Shown in pieces: positions 8,474 to 49,867 of a stretch of DNA of 64,000 nucleotides. The DNA comes from Leucoraja erinacea (taxonomy: Eukaryota). The DNA lies in NCBI RefSeq assembly GCF_028641065.1, contig NC_073386.1:16926001-16990000 (forward strand). Direction: 5' to 3'. Under the pieces are notes generated by a model. It had not been told where the DNA came from. It did not search any database and saw nothing but the letters and a program-made list of their open reading frames with translations. Position 1 is the stretch's first letter. Each line of letters begins with the position of its first letter. Both the position numbers and the translations under genes were made by a program.

Positions 8474-9887
8474 TTAAACCACCTGAATATTTTTCAGAAA
8501 ATCCAAGATACCTTCTTGAGTGAGAAACATTGTCCTTCCATTATTCTGGCATTTAATTTCAAAAATAGGTGGATCTTCCAAAATCCTCTTCCCTGCAATG
8601 ATGATGTATGGATATCCCAGACAGCTGGCATCTTTCAGTCTTCTGCCAATGGTCAGATGACTGCGGTCATCAAACAGTACCTCTCCATGAAGTTGGGGGA
8701 CAGTGTCCATCAAGTTGTCATAGAATTCTGGCTGGTTAATATTCAGTTCTTCTTTACTGCCTTTCTTAGGTGAAATGACACACACCTGATAAGGGGCCAG
8801 GAGACTTGGCCACCGAATGTTGTTTTCAGTCGACAAAACCTCTATTGCTGCAGCTAGTATGCGTGTGACCCCAAGTCCAAAGCAACCCATCTCCGACAGG
8901 ATGGGCTTGTTCTCGGTGTTAGAATACGAGGCACCAAAAATCTGCGAATACTTGGTCCCAAGGTAAAAGGTGTGTCCCACCTCAATGCCCCTGCTTTCTC
9001 TCAGTTTTCCATCACATTGTGGACAGTTTGTTGTTTCAACTGCATTCATTGTTTCCACATTGGCTGCAAAATGGCAGTCTGAACACATTAAAAGATGATC
9101 CTCCCCAATCTCTGCTGGCAGCTGAAACTCATGCGACAGCTTCCCACCAATACTGCCTGGGTCGGCTTGCACCTTTACAAACTGCAATCCCAACTGGTCA
9201 AATACACAAGTGTAAGCATCAGAAACAAGTTTGTAGGTCACCTTGGCAGCTTCTTCTGAGACATCAAAGGTGTACATGTCTTTCATGTAGAACTCCCGTC
9301 CACGGAGCAAACCATAGCGTGGCTTAGGCTCATCTCTGAACTTCCTTGTCACTTGGTATAGCAACAGTGGTAGCTGTTTGTATGACAGATTTCCCTGCAT
9401 GGCCACAAGCTCAGTCACAGCTTCCTCATGTGTCGGACTTAAACAGTAGTCCATGCTGTGTCTGTCCTTTAGTCTGAATAGTTCCTTCCCCAGGAGGTCC
9501 CATCGTTCACTGGCCTTCCACAAGTTCGCAGAGGTGAGGCTGGGCATATTCACCTTCTGTCCTCCAATGGATTGCATTTCCTTATCAATAAGGCGGATAA
9601 GTTTCTCCATGGCACGGACTGTAAATGGCAGATAGTGAAAGCAGCCTGTGTTGGCTGGCTGAATTAGGCCTGCCTGAAGCATCAACCTCTGGCTTTTGCA
9701 AGTGAGCTCACTTTGACCGACCAGCTCCAACCATTCTGTCCTCTTGGAGGTTCGAGGGCTGAAAGAGGCGAGATAGCAATAGTGGTTTTGTCCGTCCATG
9801 ATGAAAATGGCTCCTGTGCAAATACAGGAAACCACAGGCGAGGTTCTTGAATAATCCTCCTGAATAAGAATGGATTGCCAATTCCAT
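8474..9887 (-). CDS. PARS2: Mitochondrial prolyl-tRNA synthetase, single coding exon; frameshift at ~9715-9722 in this sequence
   Basis: Class II ProRS motifs (PTHEE, KFRDEPKPRYGLLRGREFYMKDMY, GIEVGHTFYLG, MGCFGLGVTR) in the 8474-9835 ORF. The conserved N-terminal segment LLLSRLFQPSNLQEDR is in another frame starting at ATG 9887. Acceptor AG just upstream of 9907. Confidence 0.95.
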
Positions 9888-18930: not shown

Positions 18931-19737
18931 TAGTTCTGCTACTAACACAATAGTTAATCTTGTGATTTAGAAAATTGTGTTATAAAGACGATGGAGTTAG
19001 GGGCTAGAATGTTTCAGACTCGCAAAGTCTTTTCAATAGCAATAAGTTTATTTTTGTTATTGCAAGCTAAAAATACTAAAGTCTGTATGTTACATTATTT
19101 AATGGATTATCAAGTGTCAAAGAAGCATTTGCTTGTCAATTTCAATAGCCACGCAGGGTTAAAGTAACAGTTGTGTTCTTAAAAGACAATAATGCCTAAT
19201 TACTGCTAGAAAGTTACATGGAAACAGTATTTTCCCCCTATACTGTTAAAATCCAATACAACAATTTTCTGCTTGTCAATTTCCAAAGTAACTTCTAAGT
19301 AATCTAGTTCCTGATGGAAAGTCAGTTTTGTGTCTACATTATCTCTTATGCCCTGCCTTTTTTTTAACCTTTTTTTAAAACAAAGTTACCTATTTTTATG
19401 ATGTCTCCTTTTTCTATATGGTTAAAAATAAAACAGATGTTATGCTGTATTTGGGTAATTTAATTCTGACCAACATTCAAGTTCCAAAAGGCTTCCAATT
19501 TAGTTAAATAAACTTTAATGTTATTTACTGCTGTTCATTGTCAGATATCTTGCTCAGTAAACAAAATATTGTTTTGTCAAAGTACACTTGAGATAATGTT
19601 ATTGGCTTGTTTAGACACTTGGAACAGTTGCTAGGATCTACTGTCTAATTCAATTTTCTGATGAATCCCAGCAGCTGCATCACTTTGGCTACAGCAGGAA
19701 TTGCATTGAATAGAACTACCCCACTAAATGTTGAAAT

Positions 19738-20209
19738 ATGTCATCAAAAGCAGTGGAAAACATCGCAAACTTCAGGCAACTCTGCTTGGGCACAGCCAAG
19801 ATCTACCGCTGTTCCTTCCCAGAAAGGGCGACAGAGAAAGATGTGAAATACCTGAAGGAAACTCTGGGAATCAAACTGATCATTGACTTTCGTGAACCCA
19901 ATGAAGAGGGTGACGCACCATGTCTTAGAGACACCTACAAAAGAGTTGTTGTCCGCGAAGTGGAACTTGAAAACATGAAAGCAAATGGCACCACAGGGCA
20001 GTTTCTGATAAAGGACATGCCTCATGTGCACTTAGCCCTTGGTTTTGTTTCCAAGAAGTATTTTCGTCTTTTGACAGATGATCATAAGAAAGACCTGGTA
20101 GAGAGTTGTTCTCAGACCCCGAAGAATATCATGCAAAATATAGCGAAACGGGGTTTAAAGCAGATGTACAAGGATTTCATTGACACCTCACAGACCTTCA
20201 TCTATACAA
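19738..20209 (+). CDS. PtpB/LipA-like (Y_phosphatase3) tyrosine/lipid phosphatase, coding exon 1
   Basis: NFRQL, IYRCS and LGIKLIIDFR match the family motifs NFRDLG, LYRS and LGIKTVIDLR. Donor A|GTAAGA, phase 1. Confidence 0.88.
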
Positions 20210-20285
20210 GTAAGAGTCAGGCACAAATGTAAAAATAAGACCAGGAGTACTCCATTTAGTCCTTTGAACCTGCTTTTATTCAATA

Positions 20286-21325
20286 CTAGACCAAGGGGGA
20301 ACCATTGGGTCCCGTCCCCTAAACCCTAAACGCGCGGTNNNNNNNNNNNNNNNNNNNNNNNNNNNNNNNNNNNNNNNNNNNNNNNNNNNNNNNNNNNNNN
20401 NNNNNNNNNNNNNNNNNNNNNNNNNNNNNNNNNNNNNNNNNNNNNNNNNNNNNNNNNNNNNNNNNNNNNNNNNNNNNNNNNNNNNNNNNNNNNNNNNNNN
20501 NNNNNNNATATTATTCATTCCCTCCTTTTACCCCATCCCCGCCTTATCCACTCACACATAGCTCCCAACTCACAGGTGCATTTATAGAGGTAGAGAGAGA
20601 GGACAGAGAAAGAGGGGGCAGAGAGAGAGAGAGGGGGCAGAGACAGAGAGAGAGAGAGAGGGGGACAGAGAGAGAGATAGANNNNNNNNNNNNNNNNNNN
20701 NNNNNNNNNNNNNNNNNNNNNNNNNNNNNNNNNNNNNNNNNNNNNNNNNNNNNNNNNNNNNNNNNNNNNNNNNNNNNNNNNNNNNNNNNNNNNNNNNNNN
20801 NNNNNNNNNNNNNNNNNNNNNNNNNNNNNNNNNNNNNNNNNNNNNNNNNNNNNNNNNNNNNNNNNNNNNNNNNNNNNNNNNNNNNNNNNNNNNNNNNNNN
20901 NNNNNNNNNNNNNNNNNAGAGGAGGGAGGGGGGAGAGGGGGGGGTGGAAGAGAGAGAGGGGGGGGGGGGGGGTGGGAGAGAGGCTGGGGGGAGAGAGAGC
21001 CCGGGGGGGAGAGAGAGGATGTGACCTAGGAGCCGAGAAAAAGCGAATCCTGCACGTCTTTTGAATAATGTGGCGAGAGGAGAGGGGGCGGGGGGGTGAC
21101 ATCACTCACAGCGGGACCAAGACGGTAGCAAGCAGATCCATTGTGACCTCATCAGTGAAAGAGCCGGTTTATTTTCAAAGTTATTTCAGATTTGTGAACA
21201 TTTTCATAAATAACTCGAGAAATAAGGCTCGAAATTTTCAGGTAAGACGATTTCAGACTCCAAGGGATAAATCTCTATCGGAATATGCGGAGATTTTACT
21301 GTTAGCGCGTTGTTTTTTCTAAGTT
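20286..21325 (-). mobile_element. Helitron-like element in phosphatase intron 1 (spans two N gaps)
   Basis: Minus-strand 3' end GGGACCCAATGGTTCCC-CCTTGGT-CTAG-T; GA-rich interior. 5' end uncertain. Confidence 0.55.
20339..20917. other. Assembly gaps 20339-20507 and 20682-20917 (a third at 59042-59210)
   Basis: Runs of N. Confidence 1.
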
Positions 21326-22060
21326 TGCAGCTGACACAAAGCTGGGTGGCAGTGTGAGCTGTGAGGAGGATGCAATGAGGCTTCAGGGTGAATGAATGAA
21401 TGAATTAATGAATAAGTTTATTGGCCAAGTAACATACAAGGAATTTGCCTTGGTGCTCCACCCGCAGGCGACAACGACATACAGTGACAGTTAGGAATGA
21501 CACATAAAATATTAAACATTAAAAATAAAACATTATTGATTAAACATGTGATTTAAGTAAAATACCAGAGCAAAAGTAGGATACAGATTTTTGGTTATTG
21601 AGTAGAGTTACCACTCATGGTAAAAAGCGTTTTTTATGTCTGGCTGCAGCATCTTTCACAGTCCTCATTGACTTAAATAGTGACAACATTTATTTTGCAG
21701 TACCACGTAATCTAAAAGAAAAGGTAATTGATTCCACAGTGTGAGACAAAAATGTTTATTCGTTCCCGGCCATCAGTCATGCTTAATGCTCACATGGACC
21801 TCCTCCCATTTTACTACATCCACTTTAAGAACATAAGGACATTTGAGCAGGACTAGGCCACTCAGCCCTCCAAGTCTGCCCCACCATTCAGTATAATTTT
21901 CCTCTTTCAGTACCATTTATTTACCTCGTACTTTACAAATTTCCTTTCAGTACTTTTAATATTTCATTGGTATTATAGACAGATAAATTGTTTATTAATG
22001 AAAGTAGAATAAAGTTAATAAATGTCCTTACTTTGAAAAAAAAAATGTTATTGCTTCAAG

Positions 22061-22209
22061 TGCTGAAGTTGCTGAGTGATCCGAACAATGTCCCTGCTCT
22101 GATCCATTGCACGGCTGGGAAAGATCGGACTGGGATCGCCTCTGCCCTGATTCAGTCCTGCATGGGCTTTTCAAAGGAGTGTGTTATCGATGACTATGAA
22201 GCCACCACA
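22061..22209 (+). CDS. PtpB/LipA-like phosphatase coding exon 2 (catalytic P-loop HCTAGKDRTG)
   Basis: Acceptor CAAG|TG completes codon ATG in phase 1. Encodes PALIHCTAGKDRTGIASALIQSCMGFSKECVIDDYEATT. Donor GTAAGC, phase 0. Confidence 0.92.
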
Positions 22210-23016
22210 GTAAGCAGCATTGCCATCTCTGGGCGGGGTTCATTAGCTAAGTTGTTCCTTTCTCCCGTTGGCACTTTCATTGGAAGATACAACTTTCCTT
22301 TTAAACAATTTGCACTTTAGTTTTGTTTAGAGGTACAACGTGGTAACGGGCCCTGCGGCCCACTGACTCCACACTGACCTTCGATAACTCGTTCACACTA
22401 GTTCCATGTTATCCCACTTTCCCATTCACTCCCTACACGGTAGGAGCAATTAAAAAAAAAAATCAAATTAACCTATAAACCTGCACCTCTTTGGAATGTG
22501 GGTGGAAACCAGAGCAGCTGATGGAAACCCACTTGGTCACAGGGAGAACGTGCAAACTCCACACAGACAGCACCCTAGGTCAGGATCGTATAGGGGTCTC
22601 TCAGGATCATATACGGGTCTCTGGTGCTGTGAGGCAGCAGCTTTACCAGCTGCCCCACTGTGTCACCCTATATAGCCACCATGCCTGCCACTTATAGCTT
22701 CAATATAGCTGTTTCACAGGGTTGTATGAAAGCAGAATTCGATGCTGAGTTAAGGGGATATTTGGATGACCAAAAACTTGATCAATGCTTCTTGAAGAAG
22801 GAAATGGAAAATCAGAGGCTTGGGAAAGGAATTTTAGAGCTTAGAATTGAAGAGAGGCTCACCAGAGTCCATGCCATTAACACTAAATCCTACATGAATC
22901 CTATTCTTATTCGCCCAAATTCTCAAAAATGTATCTGTACAATGTGGATGGCTTGATTGCAATCATGTATAGTCTTTCCGCTGACTGGTTAGCATGCCAC
23001 AAAAGCCCATCACTGT

Positions 23017-24130
23017 TCACTGCAGAGAATTCCACAGATTCACAACTCTCTGGGCGAAGAAGTTTTTCCTCGTCTCAGTCCTAAATGGCCTACCCCTTAT
23101 ACTTAAACTGTGACCCCTGGTTCTGGACTCCCCCAACATTGGGAACATTTTTCCTGCATCAAGCCTGTCCAATCCTTTAAGAATTTCTATAAGATCCCCT
23201 CTCACCCTTCTAAATTCCAGTGAATACAAGCCCAGTCGACCCATTCTTTCATCATTATGTCAGTCCCGCCATCCTGGGAATTAACCTTGTGAACCTGCGC
23301 AGCACTCCCTTAATAGAAATATGTCCTTCCTCAAATTATGAGACCAAAATTGCACACAATACTCCAGGTGCGGTCTCACCAGGGCCCTGTACAACTGCAG
23401 TAGGACCTCCATGCTCCTAAACTCAAATCCTCTCGCAATGAAGGGCTAACATGCCATTAGCTTTCTTCGCTGCCTGCTGTACCTGAATGCTTATTTTCAG
23501 TGATTGATATACAAGCACACCCAGGTCTCATTGCACCTCCCCTTTTCCTAATCTGACACCACTCAGATAATAATCTGCCTTCCTGTTCTTGCCACCAAAG
23601 TGAAAAACCTCACATTTATCCACATTATACTACATCTGCCATGCATCTGCCCACTCACGCAACCTATCCAAGTTACCTTGCAGCCTCATAGCATCCTCCT
23701 TGCAGCTCACACTGCTACCCAGCTTCATGTCATCCGCAAACTTGGAGATGTCATATTTAATTCCCTCGTCTAAATCATTAATATATATTGTAAATAACTG
23801 GGGTCCCAGCACTGAGCCTTGCGGCACCCCACTAGTCACTGCCTGCCATTCTGAAAAGGACCGTTAATTTATACTCTTTGTTTCCTATCTGCCAACCAGT
23901 TCTCCATCCATGTCAATACCCTACACCCCAATACCATGTGCTCTAATTTTGCACACTAATCTCTGGTGTGGGACCTTATCATAGGCTTTTTTGAAAGTCC
24001 AGATACACCGCATCCACTGGCTCTTCCTTATCCATTCTACTTGTTACATCCTCAAAAATTTCCAGAAGATTAGTCAAGCATGATTTCCCCGTCATAAATC
24101 CATGCTGACTTTGACTGACCCTGTCCCTGC
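23017..24130 (-). mobile_element. CR1 fragment in phosphatase intron 2
   Basis: [20 protein letters not shown] and FADD fragments on the minus strand. Confidence 0.9.
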
Positions 24131-24775
24131 TTTCCACTAATGCTGCCCGACCGCCATCTATTTTCATATGAGATTTTCAATATTAAGGTGCTGTTGCACT
24201 GAGAACTGCCAGCAAGCTGAGGGTGATGGCTGATTGAAACTTCTTGTAACTTAGAGAACATGGAGCAGAATTCTTTCCCAAGAAAGCACCTTGCCTTTGA
24301 ATGCCATATGCTTTTCAGAAGCTTTTGTTCTGCAATTGTCCTTAGGACACTAAGAAGCAAACATTTCTCCTTTAAAATAACTCCTCGTCTTCATACTATA
24401 AACCTGCTACAAATGACTTTCAAGTTTGATTTTGTGAGTTTACTTCCAATAGGTTTTTGAGGGTCTATTATTGTAAGTGATATATAACTCCAAACTTCCG
24501 CCCACTAAAATTCTCATAGTTGATCTCCTCAAAGACTTCCAAGGAATGCTGTTGCCTCTTTTGTCCTTTCTGACCATGCCGGGAAAACTTAAGTCCATAA
24601 ACTGTAAACAGAGCGAGCCATCACTCTGAGTTTTGCATGCAGGCATTAAAATGGAAATGGTGGAAACACGCTGCAGATCAAGCAGCATCTGTGGAGACAG
24701 AGTTAACTTTTCATTTGGAAGACCAAGGTGAACAAATTGTTGAATGAACATTTTTTATTTTCATTTTCTCTCCAG

Positions 24776-24900
24776 GAAGGCATAAAGCCCATTTATGATG
24801 AAATCCGCAAACATTACAATGGAGTACAGGGAATGGCTGAAGAGTTTTTGACCAGTGAACGAGAAACAATGGCATCAACTCTGGCCTACATTGATGAAAT
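24776..24900 (+). CDS. PtpB/LipA-like phosphatase coding exon 3
   Basis: Strong acceptor TTTTCTCTCCAG, open EGIKPIYDEIRKHYNGVQGMAEEFLTSERETMASTLAYIDE, donor GTAAGT, phase 2. Confidence 0.85.
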
Positions 24901-26438
24901 GTAAGTGGGAAATGTAAGGGATATGCTTTTTGTTTGGAAAATATGGGGAATATTTGGTGTATAAAATACAAAAAATATGTAATTTTTTAAATTTCCACAG
25001 AATCCAACATTTCATTAACATTGAACTAGCGAGATCTCTAATGTTCTATATTCTATAATCCTACTAATTGTTCAAAGCTATTTCACCTGGTTGTGGTATT
25101 ACCAGAACAGTAGTTAGGGGCAGTGGTAACATATTCATTCACTGTCATTTTATTATTCACGACTCCCGTGAATTGTGTTGGCAAACATGATTTATTATTC
25201 ACCACCTATTTCCAGAACAATATCTGAAATGGAGCAGGGTCTATGACTGATGTTCCACATAGGGAAATGTGCTATTTTTATGAAAATAGAAATGATTACA
25301 AAATGATTATGATGAGTGAAAATACTGTGAAAACTCAGCAGCTGGTGCCTGTATTTAGAGTCCTGGAAATAATATTTAATTCTAACAAAAGTTCATTGAC
25401 CTGAAACATAATATGCTAAATTTTCTGCATTTCTTTAAGTTAAAAAAAAAATTCAGTAACTGTTTTTGAAGACTTGTTCCCAAATAGAATCAGACTTTTC
25501 TATACTCACCATATCAGCAGACATTAGGGGTACTGGGATTTCTGCTAAAAGCCCATGGTCTTGCGTGAGTTATCTCATAAGCTCTATCTCGGATAAGTTC
25601 TGGGAGTGTTTCTGCCTTTTTTAGGTTGCCTGCCTAAAGCTATAGGGCCATTGAGCTGGTACATGTGCAGCATTACGGTCCAATGGGAGCAAATACAATA
25701 CAGTACTGGACATCATCAATACATTACATTGTATTGCACGTGACAAGCATAAAGAGCAAGCAATGTGAAGTATGCCGAGTGACATATTGATATCCACCTC
25801 AAAAACAAACACATTTGTTTCATCTAGCAGCTTTATTTGTTCTTTATTATTTCTAGCTTAAATTCCTGGCTGAAGGAAATTTCAGAAATTGCTTCCAATC
25901 TGTTTTTCTGACCATGCCCACACCTGATAGATTCCCAATCTAGAAATACAGCCCAGGCTACTTTGAACTTTGCAGCTAAAGATAAACAGCACACCCTTCG
26001 ATGACTTATATGATGAAATCAAAGCACGCATAGTAGAAGTAAAGCTATGAGTTCTCAGAATATATCGGAAACACTCGTCAGGTCCGGCCGCATCTGTGGG
26101 AACAGAAGCACAGTTTTCTCGCCTCTAGTTTATTCCACCCCATCACCCCCTCTCCCACCTCTTTTACTTTCAGCCTGAAGAAGGGTTCCTACCCGTAACG
26201 TCACCTATTCATCAACAGAGTTCATGTTTCGGGTGCTTTCGCACAAATGCAGCCTGACATGCTGAGTATTTCCTGCATATTCTATCCCTATTTATATGAC
26301 CGTTACACACCCCCGACCGACCCTTGACTTGACTATTTTAGATGTCCTGCATCTGTTCTGTTTTTTGATTTTCAATGTCAGTTATCAGATTGGATCCCTG
26401 TTTTGTGATAATTAAATTAACTTGACTCATCTTTTTAG

Positions 26439-26568
26439 GCATGGATCTGTGCAAGAATATTTGATCAAATGTGGATTCAATAGCCAGGAGCAAGAGAAGC
26501 TGAAGAGAAATATAATAATCACAAATCCTCAGCAGCAGCAGCAGCAGGAGCAGCAGCAGTGTATGTAG
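26439..26568 (+). CDS. PtpB/LipA-like phosphatase last coding exon, (M)HGSVQEYLIKCGFNSQEQEKLKRNIIITNPQQQQQQEQQQCM*
   Basis: Acceptor CTTTTTAG, phase matches exon 3. Resembles the family C-terminal YGS..YL..G....LR helix. TAG at 26566-26568; AATAAA near 27122 and 27337. Confidence 0.85.
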
Positions 26569-28974
26569 GATCAATCAGCTCAAGGAATGATTTGCAAGCC
26601 ACAATGTTGTTATGGTTGATTCAGATAAGGCTTTAACTTTGACCACAAGTTTGTGACTAAGTGGCATTGGTTATTTTCTCTGCATCATATCCATCCTTTA
26701 TTTGACTACTATAAACTCTGTTAGTGTGATGCCTTTTACTGCATAGATTTGATCCACCAGTTTGGGATAGCTGCCATTACAAAAAATATATATTGTTTTC
26801 TGCAGCATGATGACACTAAACTCTGTAGTTTGTAATCCAAAAAAAACTCAGGGCGAATAGTAAAGTCTAGATTAAACATCCTTCATGTCAATGCACATTG
26901 TGATTTAACATGCAAAATCCCTTCTTAAAATCATTTGGGAGATTAACTAACAAGTGTTCAGGAGCGACTTGTGTGAAACTTGTTGCTTGTCTCATTTTCT
27001 GTGTAGCTTTAGTCATTCCCATAAATCATTAATAAGAAGTTTACAATCTACGCAATTAATTTGCCTTTTTTATTTTATCAAGGACTGTTTGCAGAGCTTA
27101 TTATAAACACATTCATGCTGAAATAAACTTTGGTTTTTCAACCTGTCTGAGAACTGTTTTCATTCAATATTTTTAAGATGACATGATGTGTAGTGAGAGA
27201 ATACAATGATAGTGGGCCTACATTTCAGCTTTATGTTGCAATTTGCTGGATAAAAAATCCATACAGATTTCTTGCTGAGATAAGAGTGAAATTAAGGTTC
27301 AAAGATAATGGGCAGAAAAAATAGTTCACAAGTTTAAATAAAAAATATATTTTAATGCTCTTGTGATTTTCATCCCATGTTTCTTGCAGAAATGTCCTGG
27401 AAATATATCCTTTCTGGCAATAAACTACAGATCAATTCTGAGGTTTTGAGATGTCTTTTTGCAGCTTTTACCCTTTGGAAGTGTTGGTTTAATGTTAACA
27501 CTTAAAGGCAAAGAATGGTTCTTTCAATGAGGTACAATATGTTTGCTGACACTGTCTTTGAGAGGAAAGAAACAGTGATAAAGATGGTAAAATATGAATG
27601 ACAAAATCAGGTCACAATATTAATGATTAATGACACCCCCCTCTTATCCATGGACCATGACCCCACAGACGAGCACCAGGCCTTTATCTCTAGCACTATC
27701 AATTACTTCATCACTTTTGGCTCCCCACCCTCCCAAGCCTCCAACCTCATCGTTCCCCAGCCCCGCATGGCCCGATTTTACCTTCTCCCCAAAATCCACA
27801 AACCTGACTGTCCTGGCAGACCCATTGTTTCTGCCCGTTCGTGTCCTACCGAACTTATTTCCACATACCTCGACTCCATCCAATCCCTTGTGGTTAAATC
27901 CCTCCCTACCTATGTTCAAGACTACTCACACGCTCTTCGTCTACTCCATGACTTCCGTTTTCTAGGCCCAGGTCTTCATCTTCACCATGGATGTCCAGCC
28001 ACTCTACACCTCCATCCCCCACCAGCGTAGGTAGCGGGGTCTTAAAGCCCTGGCTGCCTTTTTTCAGCGACCGCAGTAAACATTGCATAAAACAATCCCC
28101 GGATTCTATGTGGTGGGGATGAAGGGGGAAACTCAGTCCCCTACCCGCCTAGCGGAGCTGGGGCCCGTCCGACCATAACAACGGTTTTCGCTTTGACCCC
28201 GGCCTCTCTACCCATTGCGAGGCCTCCAAATCCACACGCCCGCAGTAGCTATGGGAAGTCGCGCATCCGGGCCCGCAGCTATGCCCCTGCCTGGTTTTGT
28301 ACTGCGGTGCCGTCGACTCCCAACGTCTTTATGGGAATTATACCAGGTGCCCTATCACCAAACTCTACCTCCGCTACATCGATGACTGCATTGGTGCTAC
28401 CTCCTGCACCCACACACAACTCACTGACTTCATCCATTTCACCACTAACTGCCATCCAGCATTCAAATACACCTGGACCATTTCCCAACCATTTCTTGAC
28501 CTTACTATCTCCATCGCAGGTGATAGACTACTGACCGACATCCACTATAAACCGACTGACTCCCATGGCTATCTGGACTACACTTCTTTACCCCCTGCTT
28601 CCTGTAAGGACTCCATCTCCTACTCCCAATTCCTCCGTCTATGCCGCATCTGCACCCAGGATGATGCGTTCCACACCAGAGATGTCCTCATTCTTCAGTG
28701 AACGGGGGTTCCCCTCTTCTACTATAGATGAGGCTCTCACCAGGGTCTCTTCTATACCCCGTAAGTCTGCTATCACTTCCCATCCCCCCACTCGTAACTA
28801 GGGCAGATTCCCCTTGTCCTCACCTTCCACCCTACCAGCCGTCACATACAACAAATAATCCTCCAACATTTTCGCCACCTCCAATGGGATCCAATCACCG
28901 CCCACATCTTACCATCTCCTCCCATGTCTGCTTTCCGCAGAGACCCCTCCCTCCATAACTCCCTGGTCAATTCA

Positions 28975-32449: not shown

Positions 32450-32962
32450 TCAAGTTTTTGGTGGCTCAGATGTGTCGGGGCTCATTATTTCCAACAATAA
32501 GTTTACCAGTTGCAACTTCCCAGCCTTGATCATAGCCCTGGAGAGTTGCAAAATCTTTGGCATATGATTTAGACAAATATTACGCAATTCTTGTTTGATT
32601 CTCTCGAGTTGATACTTTGTCACAGCCTTTTCTATCCACTCTTCCACTTCGAGGATAATCGTCTCCTCGCTGGATTTTCCCTGGATGAACAGTGACAGCA
32701 GCGACTCCATGAGGCGGTGGAAGCTCTCGGAGTACTGTGACCCCACATCGTCCAGCTCGATGGCCTGCTTGAAGCATTCGGCAGCATTGCGTTCCTCACC
32801 TTTGACCTGCAAGCATTTCCCTCGCAGGACCTGGATCTCAGGCAGAGTGTCTCCGGGATCATATTCCATGGCTTTAGCAAAAAAAACCAAGGCACTGTTT
32901 AGAGCATTTTCATCCACAGGTTGAAGTTCCTGCACAGCATCAACACCCATGTAGTAACAGAC
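32450..32962 (-). CDS. TTC22: TTC22 last coding exon (VCYYMGVDAVQELQPVDE...stop)
   Basis: Acceptor CAG, stop at 32450. The seven exons sum to 1689 nt (562 aa). Confidence 0.94.
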   Translation of the reverse strand, partial: VCYYMGVDAVQELQPVDENALNSALVFFAKAMEYDPGDTLPEIQVLRGKCLQVKGEERNAAECFKQAIELDDVGSQYSESFHRLMESLLSLFIQGKSSEETIILEVEEWIEKAVTKYQLERIKQELRNICLNHMPKILQLSRAMIKAGKLQLVNLLLEIMSPDTSEPPKT

Positions 32963-33139
32963 CTGTCAACGATACAGAATTAGGTTAGTCCCCCTCTATA
33001 GACCATAAGATCATAAGACATTGGAGCAGAATTAGGCCATTTGGCCCATCAAGTCTGGTTCGCCATTTGATCATGATCCATCTTGCCATTTCAACACCAT
33101 GCTCCTGCCTTCTATCCATAACCATTGACATCCTTACTA

Positions 33140-33750
33140 TAACCATATAACCATATAACAATTACAGCACGGAAACAAGCCATCTCGGCCCTACAAGTCC
33201 GTGCCGAACAACCTTTTTTTCCCCTTAGCCCCACCTGCCTGCACTCATACCATAACCCTCCATTCCCTTCTCAACCATATGCCTATCCAATTTATTTTTA
33301 AATGATACCAATGAACCTGCCTCCACCACTTCCACTGGAAGCTCATTCCACACCGCTACCACTCTCTGAGTAAAGAAGTTCCCCCTCATATTACCCCTAA
33401 ACCTCTGTCCCTTAATTCTGAAGTCATGTCCTCTTGTTTGAATCTTCCCTATCTCAAAGGGAAAAGCTTGTCCACATCAACTCTGTCTATCCCTCTCATC
33501 ATTTTAAAGACCTCTATCAAGTCCCCCCTTAACCTTCTGCGCTCCAGAGAATAAAGACCTAACTTATTCAACCTATCTCTGTAACTTAGTTGTTGAAACC
33601 CAGGCAACATTCTAGTAAATCTCCTCTGTACTCTCTCTATTTTGTTGACATCCTTCCTATAATTGGGCGACCAAAATTGTACACCATACTCCAGATTTGG
33701 TCTCACCGATGCCTTGTACAATTTTAACATTACATCCCAGCTTCTATACT
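33140..33750 (-). mobile_element. CR1-clade LINE 3' fragment (different subfamily)
   Basis: LYKASVRPNLEYGVQFWSP..LERRRLRGDLIEVFK. Confidence 0.85.
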
Positions 33751-35084
33751 CATGCATTCTATACTCATGCACTCAAACCATGCATTACTAATCAACAACC
33801 ACAATTCAACGATTCAATGATACTTTATTATCACATGTGAGTAGGTAGAATAAAATGTTTGGCTTTGCATATAACCCAGAAAAATCATATAGCAGACCAC
33901 ACCTAGGCAGTACACAAGTGTCGCCACAGTGTGGCGCTGACAAAGTTACAAAAGTTCACTGAACAGTGCTGTCTACTGTCTGCCACCACATCTGGCAGCA
34001 GGCCCCCCTCCCCTCTCCCCTCCCCCCCCCCCCACACTGCCTATCAATCTCCGCTTTATAAATACCCAACGGCAGCTTCCACATCCATATGTGACAATGA
34101 ACTCCACAGATTCACCACCTTCGGGCTAAAGAAAATCCTCCTCATCTCCATTTAAATGGTACAGGTATGTCCTTTTATTCTGAGGCTGTGCAATTTGGCA
34201 CTACACTCTCCCGCTTATCCTCTCCACAACCACTCTATCTAGGCTTTTAACTAGTTAGTTTAGTTTAGTTTTGGTTTATAGACATAACATGGAAATGAGG
34301 TCCATGCTGACCAACCATCCATCACCCGTCCACGAGTTCTCTCCGACATAACCAGCGACAATTCACTGAAGCCAATTGACCAGCAAACCTGCACGCATTT
34401 GGAATGTGCGAGGAAACCAGAGCACCAGGAGAAAACCCATGCAGTCACGGGGAGAATGCGCAAACGTGACAATAAGCTAATCTAAACTAAAAAAAAAACG
34501 AAACACCATGCAAACAACAATTGTAATCAGAATCAAACCCAGATATCTCTATCATTGTGAAGTTTCAACTCTACCACTGCACCACCATGCAATCCTATTC
34601 GGATGGTTGCAATGAGATTACTATTCCACCAGGGATAATGAATATCTTGCGGCACATTTATGAAAGTAGATGAAACGCCACAAGAGCAGTATTTTAATAC
34701 TTTACTCTGCATTATTTCAGTACAGTGAGTTGCAGGATATCCTGACTATCATTCATTAATCATAACATACTCAGCCATCAGCAGTGGCCAGCTTTAAATT
34801 ATTATCTGTCATTGATTTTTAATTTCTCAGGATTGAATCTTTAAACACTGAGATTACATAATCTGACCAGTGTTGCAGGGTAGATTCATGTCTTTTCACA
34901 ATCCACCTGATTTTACACACCATTGACTTGATTTACACACGCTGAATGGATTAGATTAAGAACAACTCTCAGGAGCTGAAGTGAGTTAATGTAAATATAT
35001 CCTGTCAGCTCTGATGTTGGAGCAGTTCTCCCACGACTGTAATAAATGTAAATGTCCCAATTCTCATTCACAGTCAATGCTCAC

Positions 35085-35237
35085 CTGCCCCATATCCAGG
35101 TATGTTTTCAGGCAGGGCCACGCAAGCAATATTAAATCCAAGTCAGCCTTTGCTTCAGTTAGCAACCGCCTGTCAGGCACCCCACCCTGACTTCTCTTGA
35201 CACGCTCAAGGTCTTGCATATACTGCTTTACATAAAC
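35085..35237 (-). CDS. TTC22: TTC22 exon 6 (VYVKQYMQDLERVKRSQGGVPDRRLLTEAKADL...YLDMGQ)
   Basis: AG/GT bounded, 153 nt. Confidence 0.93.
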
Positions 35238-37557
35238 CTGGAAAAACAAATATAAGCAAAAATATTAACTACTTGGCGCAAGAGCTTTCTCCTCTGAGAT
35301 CAGAATTAAATCTTCCTCACTTTATAAACTCATCCTATCCTGTTTGTTCATCTGTGAGGGTTTTTTTGTTAATTTTATTTAAACAGGGACAGTGCATATT
35401 AATAAACATTAATAAACATTAATGAAAATGTACATGTAAATATGCAAGATTATAGCCAGTAGCTAATTTCCATCTTTAGTCCCATTAGCTAAATGTTACT
35501 TTCCTGTTCCCCAGTGCCCCTCATTTAAAATCCTTGCTTTGTCTCAGGTCCTCGCTTCTTATCACTCTTTTGATCGAGACTTATAAACCCATTTCCAATC
35601 CATCCGAACCAATTTTGCCAAAATTCTATTTCTGACCTGTGTTTACATTCCTCCAAGTCCATGACCATTTGGCATCAGCTGCCTGTTACCTCACACTGTC
35701 CCACATTAACCCCAGTTACCAAGTTAATTAAATCCAATTGCAGATGCTTACAGTACTGCAGAAGATGTCCGAAACAGTTTAGTTTAGTTTATTAGTCGTA
35801 TAAAATTTAGAAGATTGAGGGGGGATCTTATAGAAACTTACAAAATTCTTAAGGGGTTGGACAGGCTAGATGCAGGAAGATTGTTCCCGATGCTGGGGAA
35901 GTCCAGAACAAGGGGTCACAGTTTAAGGATAAAGGGGAAATCTTTTAGGGCTGAGATGAGAAAAACATTTTTTACACAGACAGTGGTGAATCTGTGGAAT
36001 TCTCTGCCACAGAATGTCGTTGAGGCCAGCTCATTGGCTATATTTAAGAGGGGGTTAGATGTGGCCCTTGTGGCTAAAGGGATCAGGGGGTATGAAGAGA
36101 AGGCAGGTACAGGATACTGAGTTGGATGATCAGCCATGATCATATTGAATGGCGGTGCAGGCTCGAAGGGCCGAATGGCCTACTCTTGCACCTATTTTTT
36201 ATGTTTCTATGTGTCTATTATTGTCACATAAGATTTATCTTAATTTTCTTGTCTAATTCTCTGCCTATATTTATGATGCCATGTGACTTTCTTTTAAGAC
36301 AGTCAAATCAGTTTGCCCTACTACCTTTAAAGATTAGTGGGACAATCTCTTTCAGGTCTCTCCCTTTCTGACTTGGTTTGTAATCATACCCTTTAATTAA
36401 CATTTCCTCTTAGTCTTCCTGACAAATATATACATTTTCAGTACCTGTATGGGCAGGGAGAGGAGAATAATTTAGTTTAGAATTGTGTATTTTTGTCACG
36501 TACCGAGGTACAGTGAAAGGCTTTGTTGTTGCATGCTAACCAGTCAGGGAAAAGACTATACATTATTACAATCCACAGTGTACAAACACAGGATAAAGGG
36601 GATAACATTTAGTCACAAAGTTCGGTGAAGTCCGATTATAGACAGTCTGAAGGTCTCCCCTGAGGTAGATGGTAGGTCGGGATCACTCTCTAGTTGGTGA
36701 AAGGATGGTTCAGTTGCCTGAATGCAGCAGGGAAGAAACTGTCTCTGAATCAGGGAGGTTTGCATTTTCAAACGTCTGTCCCTTGCCTGATGGAGGTGGG
36801 GAGAAGGGGAAGCGATTGGGGTGAGATTTCGCCCTTGATTCTGCTGGTGGCCTTGCTGAGGTGGCGTGAAGTGTAGATGGAGTCAAGGGAAGGGAGGTTG
36901 GTTTGCACAAAAACTGTGGGTAAACAGTGAAGAAAAAGGCAGATGGAGGCAGATTGATGAAAAGATTCAAGAGCAAAAGAAAAGCCCGAAGAAAGGTATC
37001 GACCCAAAACATCAACTGTCCATGTTCTCCAGGGATGCTGCCTGACCCGCTGAGGTACTCCAGCACTCTGTAACTTTTTTTTAATGACCTCTGAGGTTGT
37101 GCAGTTCCCCTGTCAAAATCCTCTCGAGAGCTCTGGAAAAGATCATGTTATTGATCACTCACTTCTGGGTGAAATTAGACCAAATGTTTTCAGATTTCTA
37201 TAGCGTTTTTCTCGCTTCTAGTATTGCTTTTCTCCTGTCCCTGCTTGCTAGGCTTACCATGTCTACACATACCTATCTGTCACACACCCGCCAACATTGA
37301 TAATAGTGGAAGGTGATGGTGGGTAGCGCAGTGGCACAGATGATAATGCTGCTACCTCACAACACTTGAGTTCCTGATCTCAGGTGCTGCCTGTATAAAG
37401 TTTGCACATTCTCCCTATGTTGGTTTCCTCCGGGTGCTCCGATTTCCTTCCACATCCCAAAGATTAATTTATTTCCATAACTTGCCCTTACAGTGTAGGG
37501 AGTGATTGCAAAAGAGAGATAACATAAAACTAGTGTGAATAGGTGATTTATGCTTTA

Positions 37558-37755
<198 letters not shown>

Positions 37756-40566
37756 TCACAAAAGAGAAGCAAATTAGATACATATATATATAATGTGCCA
37801 TTAAAATATCATCTTCAACCCGTTTTAAAGTTAGAGGTTTTTGGCAAAACAGATAGGTTTCCAGGAATGACTGTATAGCAGCATTTCATTTTACATACGT
37901 ATCTGTAACAAACACAACCAAAGTTGGTGTTCATTGATCAAATTTCATGGCAGTAATGGGACATTCTGTTGCGGTGCCTCCTAGAGGGTAATTAATGCTG
38001 AAGTAAGGAGTTTTAACTTTCAATGTATCTGTAACAAACACAACACTCAAGATTCCAGCATCTGCAGTCCCTTTGTACCACCTCTCTCTTGTTGTTCATT
38101 TCACTGATGAGAAGGTTCAGCTTTCTATCGCTAAGTTTAATAGCTTTTCTCCACTCACCTGCAGCCTCGCTCGCCTCCACCAGTGTGTATTGCTACTGCC
38201 TGGCTTATATTAATATAGTTTACCCCCACCCCTCCTTGCACTTCACCCCATCCCACCAAATCGCTGTTAGTACTACCACAAACTGGTCGCACTTGATAGA
38301 TCTGGTTGTTATATTAGATTGCTGTATGTTCTATAAGACCATAAGAATAGGAGTTGAATTACACCATTCAGCCCATCGAGTCTACTCCACCATTCAATCA
38401 TGGCTGATCTATTTTCCCTCTCAACCTCATTTCCTGCCTTCTCCCTGGAACCTTTGATGCCCTTCCTAATCAAGAACCAATCAATTGTTGCTTTAAAAAT
38501 ACCTAATGTCTTGCCTTCCACCACCCTCTGTGGCAACAAATTCCCATCCTCTGGCTAAAGAAATTCATTCTGATCTCCATTCTAAAGGTACGTCCTTTTA
38601 TTCTGAGGCTGTGCCCTCTGGTCCTAAATTTTCCCATTCCTGGAAACATCCTTTCCACATCCACTCCATGTAGGTCTTTCAAGTTCAAGTTCAAGTTCAA
38701 GTGAGTTTATTGTCATGTGTTCCTGTGTAGGACAATGAAAGTCTTGCTTTGCTTCAGCACACAGAACATAGTAGGCATTTACTACAAAAACAGATAAGTG
38801 TGTCCATATACCATGATATAAATACACACATGAATAAATAAACTGATAAAGTGCAAATAACAGAAAAATGGGTTATTAATAATCAGAGTTTTGTCCGAGC
38901 CAGGTTTAATAGCCTGATGGCTGTGGGGAATTATCCGGTAGGTTTCAATGAGAATCCCCTTCATCCTTCAAAATTCCAGTGAGTACAGGCCTTGAGGTCA
39001 GTTGAATTTAGAGCAGGAATAGGGCACTCAGCCCCTCTGCCATTAAATAAAATCATAGCTGATCTAATTACAGCTGCAAATCCACATTATGATTAACCCA
39101 CAGTTCATCTGCTTGCTTCTCAAGAGTGTTTCTGTGCCCGTATTAAAAAATTCAAAGGACGTGTCACCATTGCTGTTTGAGCAAGAGAGTTTCAAAGGCT
39201 CTTGGCTCTCTTTGAGAAACAATTTAAACTCATCTCTTGCATAAACTGGTGATGGTTTATTTTCGAGCAGTTTTAGGTTCTACCACTAGAGGAACCATAA
39301 TCAGCAAATTTAGCAATTTGCTTCTTCTCCTATCTCTGCCTCTTCATCCACATCATATTGTTAACAAACCGTTAACAATTGAAACCCAAATAACAATTCC
39401 TTAGCACACCACTCATTGCAACATGTTAACTGAGAAAGGCCACTTATTTTCTCTTTGTTTCGTCCCTTTGTTTCCTTATAGCCCACTCATTTTCCATCCC
39501 TGCCGTCATATTTCTCCCAATGCCCTGTTTATTTTCTGAAAGCCACTGTCATTCACCTTAATTTGTATTTAAACCCTTAATACAAATCTTCTCTTGAACT
39601 TTTCTGTTCCCCAACAACACTATATTAAATTTCCTTAGCACCCTTTCTAAGGTATTAGCATATTTCCTGGTGTGCGGTAGCTCGATCTGCCCACATCATT
39701 TCAATAAAGCTTGTACAATGCTTCCAATAACACAGCACTAAAGGAGTGATTGGAACGTTTGCCTTTTTTAATGGCCTTCTCAACTTGATCTGTCATGACA
39801 TACTTCCAAGTCAATATGCTGTGCAACCTGCAAGTGAATCTACGACTGGTGGTGTTCCTCTACACATTTCAGCCTTGTCCTTCTTCAGGGAAGAGGCTGT
39901 GGGCTTACGTGGTGTTGTTGAAACAATCTATCAGAGTATCTCCCGTGCACCACACGGCAATGCACTAGTGGCAAAGGTTAAAACAAAACTTTTCTCAAAC
40001 AAAATCCAGTGTCGATGCTCACGTAATTAATTAAACAAATTAATATCTTTAATTTAAAAAATAATGAAATCACTGAAACAGGTCTAAAATTATAAACACC
40101 ATACAGTACTTAGATTTAAATATCAAAGAATCTTTGAATTAAAAATGGATATTAGCCCGAGATGGGGTGTTCATAACAGGAGCTTGATTTTGTGTATGGA
40201 TGTCCATTGATATAAGATGGTTTTTTCTAAGGCAGTGTAGTTCAGAGCTAAATTACTCTGCAATTACTCACAATTACTCTGCAATTACTTACAACTACAA
40301 AGCATCTCGAAGTTGCCAAATCTAATTTAAAATAGCCTACAAAATTTCCAATTTCCCCCTTTCAATTAACATCCTGTTATGATCCAGGACCACTATGGTC
40401 TCATCTAGGACCATAATCTATATTAAGTTCCGATATTTGTTTTATTCACAGGGAACCATGAAAATGAAGCTCTTCCTTTTCTGACAGATAAGGCATATCA
40501 GACACACAGATATTCCCCTTTATGGTCGGAGCTGAGTTCCCAACTGTTGGTCATTGAAATGCTTCA

Positions 40567-40761
<195 letters not shown>

Positions 40762-41916
40762 TTATCAATAACTTCTAGCCTTAGTTTTTAATTAATAAAA
40801 TTAAATTTTAATACTGTATATGTCAATGACTTTATAGGGCAAACTGTTTGCTTTTTTGGCTAAAACAAACAGCAGCATCTGTGGAGGAAATGAACAGATG
40901 AGGTTTTGAAGTCTGAAGAAGGGTCTCGACCAGAAACGTCTCGACCATGAATTACTCCAGCATTTTGTGTCTATCTTCGATTTAAACCAGCATCTGCAGT
41001 TCTTTCCTACAGATTAAGTTTTGAGTTGGGACCTTTCTACAGGTTGAAGGGCGATCCAAAATTGAAATTTCATCTGTCCGTTCTCTCCACAGATGCTGCC
41101 TGACCTGCTGAGTTCCTCTGGCAGTTTGATTTTTGCTCAAGATTCCAGCATCTGCAGTTTCTTGTGCTGTTACTTTTTTAGCTCCCCTGTCATTACTATG
41201 TCCTAGTTCACTCTGGATCACTCCACCTTTACTACCACCTCAAGCCACCATTCCACCCCACCAACAATATCTCCAATATCGAGGGACCCTGCTATTTCCA
41301 CCGTTCAATTAATCTTCATTCTCCTCATCTCAACAGATATGAATCTGACAAATAACAGGATAATACCTAACACAGAAAAATGCAAAATATGTACAAGTTC
41401 AAAGCAAACTATCAGTAATAATTAAAGAGCATAATATTAGTGTATTATATATTAATATTATATATATATATTTTATGTTATATATTGTATTTATATATTA
41501 TATTAATCATGACATTAGTATATTATACGCAATGGGTTATATTATATATTCATGATATTAGTCTGAAGAAGGATCTTGACCCAAAACATCACCTATTCAT
41601 GTTCTCCAGAGATGCTGCCTGACCTGCTGAGTTACTCCAGCACCTGGTGTCTTTCTTTGGTAAACCAACATCTGTGATTCCTTCTTATTTCATGATATTA
41701 GTGCTTTGTGTTGTTTTCTTTCATTAGAAGCAGTAACAATGCAAGCAGGTAGATGGGACTAGTCTAGATGGGACATGTTGGCCGGTGTGGGATAGTGGGC
41801 AAGACTCAATGACTCCTTAACTAACATAGCTAATGAAAGTATTTTCATGGTACGGTATGAGTTAATCTGATATTCCACTTTATTTTCTTTCGAGGGCACA
41901 CAACCTCTTACACTAC

Positions 41917-42032
41917 CTTGGTATTCAGCACTGTCAGACTTCAGCACCTCCCGCAGTAATGCTAGAGCTCTATTGAAAGACAGCAGGCGCTTCTGATCAG
42001 GGCCTCTCGTGTTCATTAACATTCCATCCAGT
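41917..42032 (-). CDS. TTC22: TTC22 exon 3 (LDGMLMNTRGPDQKRLLSFNRALALLREVLKSDSAEYQ)
   Basis: AG/GT bounded, 116 nt, phase consistent. Confidence 0.93.
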
Positions 42033-42427
42033 CTACCAGAGAAGAAGAGAAAGCTAAACAAAAAATCTGAGGAATGTAGAAACAAAGTAAAAAAAATTCT
42101 GTCTTGGATTAAATAAGATTGGCGTCTCAGATGGTCAAGGAGCAGTCACACCCCGGCCACTCCCTCTTCTCCCCTCTCCCCTCAGGGAAGAGGTGTAGAA
42201 GTGTGAAAAAGCACACCTTCAGATTCAGGGACAGTTTCTTCCCAGCTGTTATCTGGCAACTGAACCATCCAACCAATAACCTGATCGACTATCTACCTCA
42301 TAGGAGACTATCTTTGATCCGACTTTTCCAAACTTGCACTTAATGTTATTCACATTATTCCATTTATCATGTATCTCTACATTGTGAATGGCTGGATTGT
42401 AATCATGTATTGTCTTTCCACTGACTA

Positions 42428-42801
42428 AAGGGCCTGTCCCACTTTCACGAGTTATTCACAAATTCTCCCGAGTTTTCCCCTTGATTCAAACTCGCAGAAT
42501 GTTCGTAACGAGTCTGTAGGAGGAGGCCGTAGGAGTCCCTAGATATATCGTAGCGGCTCGTTATGCCAGCCGTAGGTACTCGGGGCTATTCTTTTACTCG
42601 TGGACATTTTTTATCAGGCTGGTAAAAACGTCCCGACTTACCTGATGCCCCGAGTACCAACGGCTGGAATAACGAGCTGCTACGATATATCTACGGACTC
42701 GTACGGCCTCCTACGGACTCGTTACGAACATTCTGCGAGTTTGAATCAAGGGGAAAACTCAGGAGAATTCGTGAATAATTGGGAAAGTGGGACAGGCCCT
42801 T
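42428..42801. mobile_element. Palindromic MITE (PIF/Harbinger-like TIRs) inside a Rex1-like fragment; related element at ~50141-50340
   Basis: TIRs AAGGGCCTGTCCCACTTT / AAAGTGGGACAGGCCCTT with long internal inverted symmetry. Confidence 0.75.
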
Positions 42802-42975
42802 CATTAGCACGCAACAAAGGTTTTTCACTGTACCTTGGTATAATAATATAAAGAGGACTAAATGAGACTAAACTAAACTAAATAGTTTAGATTCCATGGA
42901 GTATGGGGATCAGTGGAACTAGAGGGATAGAAAAATGCTAATATTTCAGCTGGTGATATTATTAATTTCTCCTAC

Positions 42976-43031
42976 CTGATATACATGGTGGCCATTGTAA
43001 AATACCAACTCCTTTTTTCTTCTGAGGGTAT
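42976..43031 (-). CDS. TTC22: TTC22 exon 2 (IPSEEKRSWYFTMATMYIR)
   Basis: AG/GT bounded, 56 nt; matches human IPMEEKRGWYFTMATLYIR. Confidence 0.93.
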
Positions 43032-43159
43032 CTGTAACAAAGAAATAAAGCTATAACATAATTACAGTATCTATGTTGGCCTTTCATTAGCGATGTTACA
43101 AAACCTACCTTCAGCGGGGCTGCAGATCTGTCACTGGCTGTGTGTGCGACTGGGGGTAG

Positions 43160-44252
43160 GGTGTTGACATGGATAGAAAATTGGTCGGCAGACAGGAAGC
43201 AAAGAGTAGGAGCAAACGGGTCCTATTCAGAATGGCAGATAGTGGCGAATGGAGTGCCGCAAGGCTCGGTGTTGGGGCCGCAACTGTTTACCATATATTA
43301 ATGATTTGGAAGAGGGAATTAGGAGCAACACTAGCAAGTTTGCGGTTGACACAAAGTTGGGTGGCAGTGTGAACTGTGATGTTAGGAGGTTGCAGGGAGA
43401 CCTGGACAGGTTGAGTGAGTGGGCAGGTGCAGTATAATGTAGATAAATGTGAGGTTATCCGCTTTGGTGGCAAAAATAAGGGGGCAGATTATTATCTCAA
43501 TGGGGTTAGGTTAGGCAAGGGGGAGGTGTAGCGAGACCTAGGCGTCCTTGTACACCAGTCACTGAAAGTTGGCGTGCTGGTACAGTAGGCAGTGAAGACA
43601 GCTAATGGAATGTTGGCCTTCATGACAAGAGGATTTCAGTATAGGAGTAGAGGTTCTTTTGCAGTTGTATAGGGCTCGGGTGAGACCACATCTGGAGTAT
43701 TATGTACAGTTTTGGTCTCAGAACTTCAGGAAGGACATCCTTGTGATTGAGGCTGTGCAGCGTAGGCTCACGAGATTGATCCCTGGGATGGCGGGACTCT
43801 CATATGAGGAAAGATTGAAAAGACTAGGCTTATATTCACTGGAGTTTAGAAGGATGAGGGGGATCTTATAGAAACATATAAAATTATTAAAGGACTGGAT
43901 AAACTAGATGCAGGAAAAATGTTCTCAATGTTGGGTGAGTCCAGAACCAGGGGCCACAGTCATAGAATAAAGGGGGAGCCATTTAAGACTGAGGTGAGAA
44001 AAAACTTTTTCACCCAGAGAGTTGTGAATTTGTGGAATTTCCTGCCACAGAGGGCCGTGGAGGCCAAGTCACTGGATGGATTTAAGAGAGAGTTAGATAG
44101 AGCTCTAGCGGCTAGTGGAATCAAGGGATATGGGGAGAAGGCAGGCATGGGGTTACTGATTTTGGATGATCAGCCATGATCACATTGAATGGCGGTGCTG
44201 GCTCGAAGGGCCGAATGGCCTCCTCCTGCACCTATTTTTTATGTTTCTATGA
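43160..44252 (+). mobile_element. CR1 3' fragment
   Basis: RT C-terminal motifs and the TTTCTATG tail. Confidence 0.9.
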
Positions 44253-46710: not shown

Positions 46711-46727
46711 GCTACTGATTATGATAT

Positions 46728-49699: not shown

Positions 49700-49735
49700 C
49701 TCCGGCTCACATAGAGAGCTCCCGATGAACAAGCC

Positions 49736-49867
49736 CTCTGTCTCTGCCTCTGCCTCTGCCTCTGTCTCTGCGCCTGTCTCTGCCTCTGTCTCTGCGCCTG
49801 TCTCTGCCTCTGCCTCTGCCTCTGCCTCTGCCTCTGTCTCTGTCTCTGTCTCTGCCTCTGTCTCTGT
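49736..49867 (-). repeat. (GCAGAG/ACAGAG)n hexamer repeat upstream of the TTC22 ATG
   Basis: About 22 hexamers directly visible. Confidence 0.95.

Follow-up and report, generated by a model that had tools for sequence, protein, structure and literature searches.

How does a phosphatase of a kind described as microbial come to sit, split by introns, in the genome of a skate? The question is raised by a stretch of 64,000 nucleotides from Leucoraja erinacea (assembly GCF_028641065.1, contig NC_073386.1, positions 16,926,001 to 16,990,000 of the forward strand; hereafter the window, to which all coordinates refer), in which a sequence-only reading had found a spliced gene at 19738..26568. That reading called the gene a microbial-type phosphatase of the PtpB/LipA kind and offered two origins: an ancestral animal gene kept in cartilaginous fishes and lost in mammals, or an old horizontal acquisition that gained introns. 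We consider it likely that the gene encodes an intact, spliced phosphatase of the atypical lipid phosphatase (ALP)/PtpB family (PF13350), vertically inherited from an animal ancestor, probably lost in bony vertebrates and predicted to act on phosphoinositide monophosphates and phosphotyrosine (pTyr). Taken by itself, the vertical origin from the ancestor of animals is very probable on sequence comparison. The label "microbial-type" was not borne out, its basis being a sampling artefact: the nearest relatives are invertebrates, then unicellular holozoans, and because of these relatives and of shared introns vertical descent is favoured over horizontal transfer.

Structure and family of the skate gene

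The locus is a real, spliced, single-copy skate gene. Its four coding exons form an intact open reading frame (ORF) of 876 nt (291 aa) with no internal stop, all exon ends are GT/AG and the intron phases are 1/0/2; recomputation gave the earlier exon model exactly as claimed, and the P-loop HCTAGKDRTG was placed identically on recheck. The features are listed below, with matches to contigs assembled from two sequencing runs, X1 and X4.

19672..19737, plus strand: 5' untranslated region (UTR) portion of the first coding exon; the X4 contig matches from 19670, the X1 contig from 19673
19738..20209, plus strand: coding exon 1, residues 1-157 plus 1 nt (PF13350 E 3.6e-9)
20210..22060, plus strand: intron 1, phase 1, inside residue Cys-16 (exon-joined contigs)
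22061..22209, plus strand: coding exon 2, catalytic core (PF13350 E 5.3e-16)
22105..22134, plus strand: P-loop HCTAGKDRTG with Cys174, Lys178, Asp179 and Arg180 (translation; alignment to PtpB)
22210..24775, plus strand: intron 2, phase 0, after Cys+33 (exon-joined contig)
24776..24900, plus strand: coding exon 3, helices following the P-loop (PtpB alignment: most of the mycobacterial lid insertion absent)
24901..26438, plus strand: intron 3, phase 2, inside residue Cys+75
26439..26568, plus strand: coding part of exon 4 with GSVxxYL..GF motif, poly-Gln tail and stop
26569..27127, plus strand: 3' UTR, reaching at least 27102, with AATAAA at 27122-27127

Exon 1 encodes the N-terminal motifs NFRQL, YRxS and GIxxIIDFR together with a polar, shortened segment which replaces a hydrophobic segment of the invertebrate proteins; the Cys174 codon is at 22108-22110. 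The CAG-rich poly-Gln tail (26527-26559) differs in length among skate sequences (proteins of 287-294 aa). C-terminal prenylation was considered and discarded, as the Cys is second from the end and there is hence no CaaX motif.

Assembled contigs join the exons at the predicted boundaries. Contig 10 of X4 (1627 nt) joins 19670-20209, 22061-22208 and 26439-27102 at the edges predicted and has, between its exon 2 and exon 4 parts, a gap as long as exon 3; contig 4 of X1, a run whose organism code is that of the best-matching runs, joins 22061-22209 to 24776-24900. The depth is near 0 in unique intron bins vs 28 in exons. Each of the 14 Logan sequences listed for the skate cluster carries the whole protein of 287-294 aa on a contig of 1.1-1.7 kb, the gene itself spanning 6.8 kb. 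No phosphatase junction was among the junctions listed for raw RNA runs X19 and X23, and the sequencing-run search listed no RNA run as carrying the gene. When the 2.19-Gb genome was searched with PF13350 and, separately, with the protein, this locus alone came up each time (8/8 candidates scored in either case), and the protein matched exactly the four exons.

By every feature tested, of the sequence and of the predicted models, the gene is a member of the ALP/PtpB family, in agreement with the earlier assignment. PF13350 is the best-matching profile: exons 1 and 2 each pass its cut-off alone, and the Amblyraja radiata protein (XP_032884667.1, P0004; 95.9% identical) scores 156 bits over residues 19-274 (E 1.9e-45) against a curated cut-off of 22.2. 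Foldseek returned PtpB as top match for both predicted models (E about 1e-10, query TM-score [TMq] 0.57-0.61), the second of which has a model confidence (pLDDT) of 89.6. The P-loop aligns with that of PtpB and fits the pattern HCxxGKDR[TA]G with Lys5 and Asp6; CxxGKDRTG is intact in all 22 chondrichthyan proteins checked. There is one phosphatase domain without lipid-binding modules, and neither a WPD loop nor a KNRY motif is present.

Other identities were tried and rejected. The best hits are not known vertebrate PTPs or DUSPs, and a classical PTP, DUSP or myotubularin is contradicted by the missing WPD loop and by PF00102 and PF06602 scores under the cut-off. PFA-DSP/Siw14/OCA (PF03162) reaches 37 vs 156 bits and a TMq of 0.3-0.39 vs 0.59, and the mycobacterial PtpB subgroup is set apart by a 14-residue gap in the shark profile at the PtpB lid region. 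NCBIfam gave no family for proteins P0004 or P0020.

Relatives, intron positions and descent

Orthologs were found in five sharks and in Callorhinchus; identity to the skate protein is 96.9-98.6% for the 14 Logan proteins and 45-53% for sharks. A first, word-limited protein search returned 57 matches: skates (two clusters) and five sharks came first, what followed was bacterial, fungal or unnamed at 21-41% identity, and all invertebrates were missed. When a chondrichthyan profile was run exhaustively with HMMER against 1.84 billion representatives, a single shark cluster came out at 545 bits and the next group at 190-170 bits. Nine of the 10 best non-shark matches are named, all from invertebrate animals (Owenia, Ptychodera, Biomphalaria, two Branchiostoma paralogs, Octopus, Tubulanus, Haliotis, Aplysia), and one is unnamed. 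Amphioxus has two divergent paralogs of the gene (P0077, P0078). With a broader profile (120 of 646 matches listed) the set grew by Callorhinchus milii (52% to Heptranchias), Trichoplax and numerous molluscs, and a look-up of 10 further proteins named four: a sea urchin, Pigoraptor, Creolimax and a "Clim" model that we read as Corallochytrium. The survey of vertebrates and invertebrates suggested by the sequence-only reading thus yielded amphioxus, chimaera, sharks and other invertebrates; among the matches listed, many of them unnamed, there was no named bony fish, tetrapod, cyclostome, arthropod or nematode; the named search with the broader profile was word-limited and failed to return four rows of its query. 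Several shark and ray orders yielded no ortholog.

Because only clusters of at least 50 members were searched in the ESM Atlas, its nearest clusters (fungal and bacterial PF13350) are uninformative on origin. A viral source was also considered; none of 600 pattern matches in viral_contigs was confirmed as a relative.

All three skate intron positions recur in invertebrate homologs. They were read from the protein break points of gene models which run into an intron or skip an exon. Among stored proteins that score >90 bits on the animal profile and end >25 columns early, 21/21 break at skate intron columns: 11 at intron 1, seven at intron 2 and three at intron 3. The intron 1 breaks (seven sea-urchin rows from one cluster, a row of the Haliotis cluster, a B. 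floridae model and two unnamed rows) show Gly in 10/11, as G/GT in phase 1 predicts, and those at intron 2, all in unnamed rows, show Val in 7/7, as GT in phase 0 predicts. One of the latter rows was put in a tree and groups with Trichoplax. The intron 3 breaks are those of three Branchiostoma models, and an exon-skipped form from Biomphalaria rejoins at the intron 1 position. Three shared positions are predicted by vertical descent and are not predicted by intron gain after a transfer.

The protein tree favours an animal origin and is, alone, no proof of it. In a careful tree of 27 chosen rows, from which bacteria were left out, fungi and other rows are followed by unicellular holozoans and then by all 18 animal-type rows together (97/95); Callorhinchus is sister to the elasmobranchs and the chondrichthyan stem measures 0.81. 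With 186 rows, after removal of 20 that were short or without motif, FastTree united the elasmobranchs with the invertebrate group at 0.94. Bacteria entered a quick IQ-TREE tree of 52 chosen rows, where five bacterial rows fall outside a 97% eukaryote-type group.

Several observations weigh against this account. The quick IQ-TREE trees of 65 and 52 chosen rows leave the chondrichthyans in an open fork; in the 52-row tree they share it with Pigoraptor, Creolimax and other rows, and the invertebrates group at 98% without them. Approximately unbiased (AU) tests give only borderline rejection when chondrichthyans are joined with Creolimax (p 0.045) or with all unicellular holozoans (p 0.048) and do not reject their union with the fungal/other outgroup (p 0.075); for B. 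floridae and for deuterostomes p is 0.056 and 0.15, and the tree places chondrichthyans next to neither. The intron evidence consists of protein break points, not invertebrate DNA, the number of independent lineages is much smaller than the 21 rows (seven come from the one sea-urchin cluster), and an Octopus model outside the 21 breaks three residues past intron 3. The RNA status of X1 and X4 is a tool guess only, X4 being flagged "probably DNA", and two raw RNA runs of another species have 0-2 reads at the listed exon-1 positions. Constraint on exon 1 looks weak, and absence from bony vertebrates rests on indirect evidence: a word-limited named search, many unnamed matches and an orthogroup known by its size.

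Ichthyosporeans include fish parasites, and a transfer from such a unicellular eukaryote, or descent from an old paralog other than the invertebrate gene, would accord with the open fork, the borderline AU values and the long chondrichthyan stem. We regard either as very unlikely, since the careful tree and FastTree join chondrichthyans to animals, the best HMMER matches are animals and the three introns lie at animal positions; the long branch accounts for the pull toward the root. Less probable still is an old transfer from bacteria to the chondrichthyan ancestor with later intron gain. It had seemed evenly balanced with its alternative after the word-limited search, which listed only bacterial, fungal and unnamed proteins after the chondrichthyans, and was dropped once the exhaustive HMMER search had put invertebrates in that place and the shared introns had been seen. 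The solved-structure relatives are bacterial and HCTAG is the common bacterial P-loop form, many invertebrates having NCAHG, but the His before the Cys occurs also in Trichoplax and Pigoraptor, the bacterial rows lie outside the eukaryote-type group, and the recurrence of the three intron positions largely refutes this origin. The marks of a horizontal acquisition (non-animal nearest relatives, absence from invertebrates, lineage-specific introns) were not found. Of the two origins offered by the sequence-only reading, we thus retain the ancestral animal gene and abandon the acquisition with intron gain.

Distribution in vertebrates, selection and gene neighbourhood

Judged from sequence searches, the ancestral animal gene was probably lost in bony vertebrates. 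Unless it were at least 50% identical to the shark representative, a bony-vertebrate ortholog would be expected to stand as a cluster apart, scoring below the shark and above the invertebrate matches; in the HMMER search of the 1.84 billion representatives the range from 545 to 190 bits contained no such cluster. In the whale-shark genome paper (PMC8455134; for this and the other papers cited by PMC number, statements refer to the parts of the text available to us), one PF13350 orthogroup was seen for 37 chordate proteomes, OG0014375, with 4 proteins in 3 taxa. Two amphioxus paralogs, Callorhinchus and Carcharodon would fit these numbers, and with that presumed membership lamprey, Ciona, all sampled bony vertebrates and three sharks would be without the gene. 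The proposed loss in mammals thus stays probable; from searches and orthogroup size, which are indirect evidence, its scope appears wider, extending to bony vertebrates as a whole and to some shark orders.

Constraint on exon 1 is present but loose. In comparison with run X4, the ratio of non-synonymous to synonymous rates (dN/dS) comes to 0.42 (p 0.03); when transitions are weighted it is 0.52-0.61 (p 0.07-0.14). These values derive from 11 synonymous and 17 non-synonymous changes (28 of 30 differences in the exon-1 piece). For this exon the point estimates are below the value near 1 that the sequence-only reading had named, together with pseudogenised orthologs, as refuting its claim. Asp50/Arg52 (19885-19893) are Gly/Cys in the X4 organism and Ser/Cys in two lamniform sharks, an apparently convergent change. 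At residue 25 (19810-19812, YRSS motif) the window species has Cys, where other skates and almost every homolog have Ser; run X1 agrees with the window at this codon (depth about 3), and Cys25 is probably not an assembly error.

Relaxed selection, with the gene drifting toward loss as in other vertebrate lineages, would be in keeping with the dN/dS values, with Asp50/Arg52 being changed in the X4 organism and absent from the two lamniform sharks, with Cys at a nearly invariant Ser, with the low skate-shark identity and with the shark and ray orders that lack a found ortholog. We consider it improbable, as the ORF and the P-loop are intact in 22/22 chondrichthyan proteins from chimaera to skates and the dN/dS point estimates are below 1.

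The gene lies on a contig of 61.9 Mb between two neighbours:

8474..9886, minus strand: proline-tRNA ligase ORF (left neighbour), which we take to be PARS2-like
32450..49960, minus strand: exons of a tetratricopeptide repeat (TPR) protein (right neighbour), presumably TTC22-like

Contamination was rejected in view of these neighbours, of TTC4-like exons on the same contig and of orthologs in other species; together with the exon-joined contigs this sustains the earlier view of a host gene. The TTC4-like exons, named on our assumption from their resemblance, are TPR-protein exons on the minus strand (74-454 of the window and 6190-9975 of L003), the same strand as the PARS2-like ORF. Human TTC4 and PARS2 converge, and a local inversion at the skate genes is possible. 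The first exon of the TTC22-like gene (49115-49960, minus strand) has an in-frame AE/TE repeat ahead of the likely start. Broken reverse-transcriptase fragments resembling long interspersed nuclear elements (LINEs) were seen at 56914-58715 (+), 28798-29680 (+) and 6370-6960 (-), and the introns are full of many shorter repeat pieces.

Upstream of coding exon 1 there is at least one non-coding exon: the X4 contig has 131 nt and the X1 contig 47 nt before the start of the match, and a tandem AG acceptor (19670-19674) precedes the 5' UTR part. An AG/GTGAGA donor near 16491 is a candidate for the end of this exon. Two stretches are CpG-enriched (observed/expected 0.7-0.9), of which 11440-11650 probably holds the PARS2 5' exon and 16000-16720 may hold the first exon of the phosphatase.

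Predicted chemistry and comparison with known systems

We hold with good confidence that the skate protein is an active enzyme. From the biochemistry of PtpB and of the Listeria and Leishmania ALPs, Cys174 would attack the phosphate and Arg180 would bind it, and by analogy Lys178 would help to bind the inositol head group (PMC3091653); Asp179 of the P-loop would act as general acid because there is no WPD loop. In ALPs the Cys serves as nucleophile, activity requires the P-loop Asp and the Lys binds the lipid head group, and members without a basic residue at P-loop position 2 act on monophosphorylated phosphoinositides and pTyr, not on PIP3 (PMC3091653). The skate protein has the non-basic Thr175 at this position, so the same profile is predicted: PI3P, PI4P or PI5P, perhaps PI(3,5)P2, and pTyr, not PIP3. 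Whether phosphoinositide monophosphates are among the real substrates we regard as evenly balanced.

A hydrophobic stretch ahead of the core is found in 15/15 named invertebrate proteins (best 19-residue hydropathy 0.89-2.12, 10-19 aromatic residues) and in Callorhinchus (1.72), while in elasmobranchs it is shorter and 6/7 score at most 0.69. From hydropathy, the ancestral animal enzyme would have docked on membranes via this aromatic-rich segment, which would have been lost in sharks and skates after their split from chimaeras; the shorter, polar replacement suggests a more soluble, cytosolic enzyme. A wider reading, which we put forward as speculation, is that animals have an overlooked, holozoan-old class of membrane-docked phosphoinositide phosphatases homologous to PtpB, unnoticed because human, mouse and zebrafish lost it, and that sharks and skates shed the anchor, evolved fast and put the soluble enzyme to a new use, for which lipid or pTyr signalling between host and pathogen is plausible. 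Somewhat less doubtful, though still short of an even chance, is that, with the same origin, the enzyme acts in nature on soluble compounds (pTyr proteins, inositol phosphates or other phosphoesters) rather than on membrane lipids. The loss of the hydrophobic segment in elasmobranchs speaks for it, as do the 7-fold preference of Lmo1935 for peptides over lipids (PMC3091653), the hydrolysis of InsP6 by the ALP Pho16B (PMC6409689) and the fact that the next structural family, Siw14/PFA-DSP, consists of inositol pyrophosphate phosphatases; all ALPs tested in PMC3091653, however, act on monophosphorylated phosphoinositides without a lipid-binding module, and the skate protein keeps Lys178 and Asp179.

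Already known are RefSeq automatic gene models, one of them named "PtpB-like", and the enzyme chemistry is not new. New is the animal branch of PF13350, from Trichoplax to cartilaginous fishes, which contradicts the 2010 statement that there are no animal homologues. A literature search, judged at listing level, gave no description of an animal ALP/PF13350 clade. A 2017 phosphatome paper by Chen, Dixon and Manning reportedly may already list a sea-urchin or sponge member. Apart from one motif match in C. elegans, the family-defining 2010 paper noted homologues in neither plants nor animals, and it described the family as unrelated to animal lipid phosphatases (PMC3091653); the family was still described as microbial later (PMC6409689), and the available parts of PMC13275282, PMC13573052, PMC13216928 and PMC13342648 add no animal member. 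Vertebrates thus started with a PtpB-like enzyme class, which bony vertebrates probably lost, and the "no human homolog" argument for drug selectivity against the PtpB family is unaffected. Skate, amphioxus or sea urchin are tractable systems for the native function of an animal PtpB-like enzyme. As a caution, a "microbial-looking" vertebrate gene can reflect patchy retention rather than transfer.

Compared with the known ALPs (M. tuberculosis MptpB, Listeria Lmo1800/Lmo1935, Leishmania LM1), the skate protein is alike in P-loop, single domain, fold and the lack of WPD and KNRY motifs; it differs in being encoded by an animal, intron-bearing gene and in having no N-terminal leader ahead of the first conserved motif. 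Identity to PtpB is about 20%, and most of the mycobacterial lid insertion is absent. PFA-DSP/Siw14/OCA is the next-best profile and fold match, although a much weaker one with a smaller domain; that family is also reported as lost from eumetazoans (PMC13573052). Myotubularins and PTEN, which are vertebrate phosphoinositide 3-phosphatases, have the CX5R chemistry in common with the skate protein, and myotubularins likewise use the P-loop Asp as acid (PMC3091653), but the match is marginal (PF06602 E about 0.009; Foldseek E 0.04 or worse) and the skate protein has no PH-GRAM, C2 or FYVE module.

The automatic models Amblyraja XP_032884667.1 ("DSP2-like"), Rhinoraja LOC144598340, Callorhinchus LOC103182731 and Carcharodon LOC121289159 are the same gene, the name of the first pointing to PFA-DSP in spite of the profile scores given above. 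The closest relatives beyond cartilaginous fishes are invertebrate and holozoan PF13350 proteins (Ptychodera XP_070572569.1 "PtpB-like", B. floridae XP_035669454.1, S. purpuratus XP_001184116.1; 31-34% to the shark protein). The invertebrate proteins share intron positions and motifs with the skate gene and are likely orthologs of the chondrichthyan gene. They have the hydrophobic, aromatic-rich segment and mostly N, C or S before the catalytic Cys, whereas the elasmobranch proteins have the shorter polar segment, His before the Cys and a long branch.

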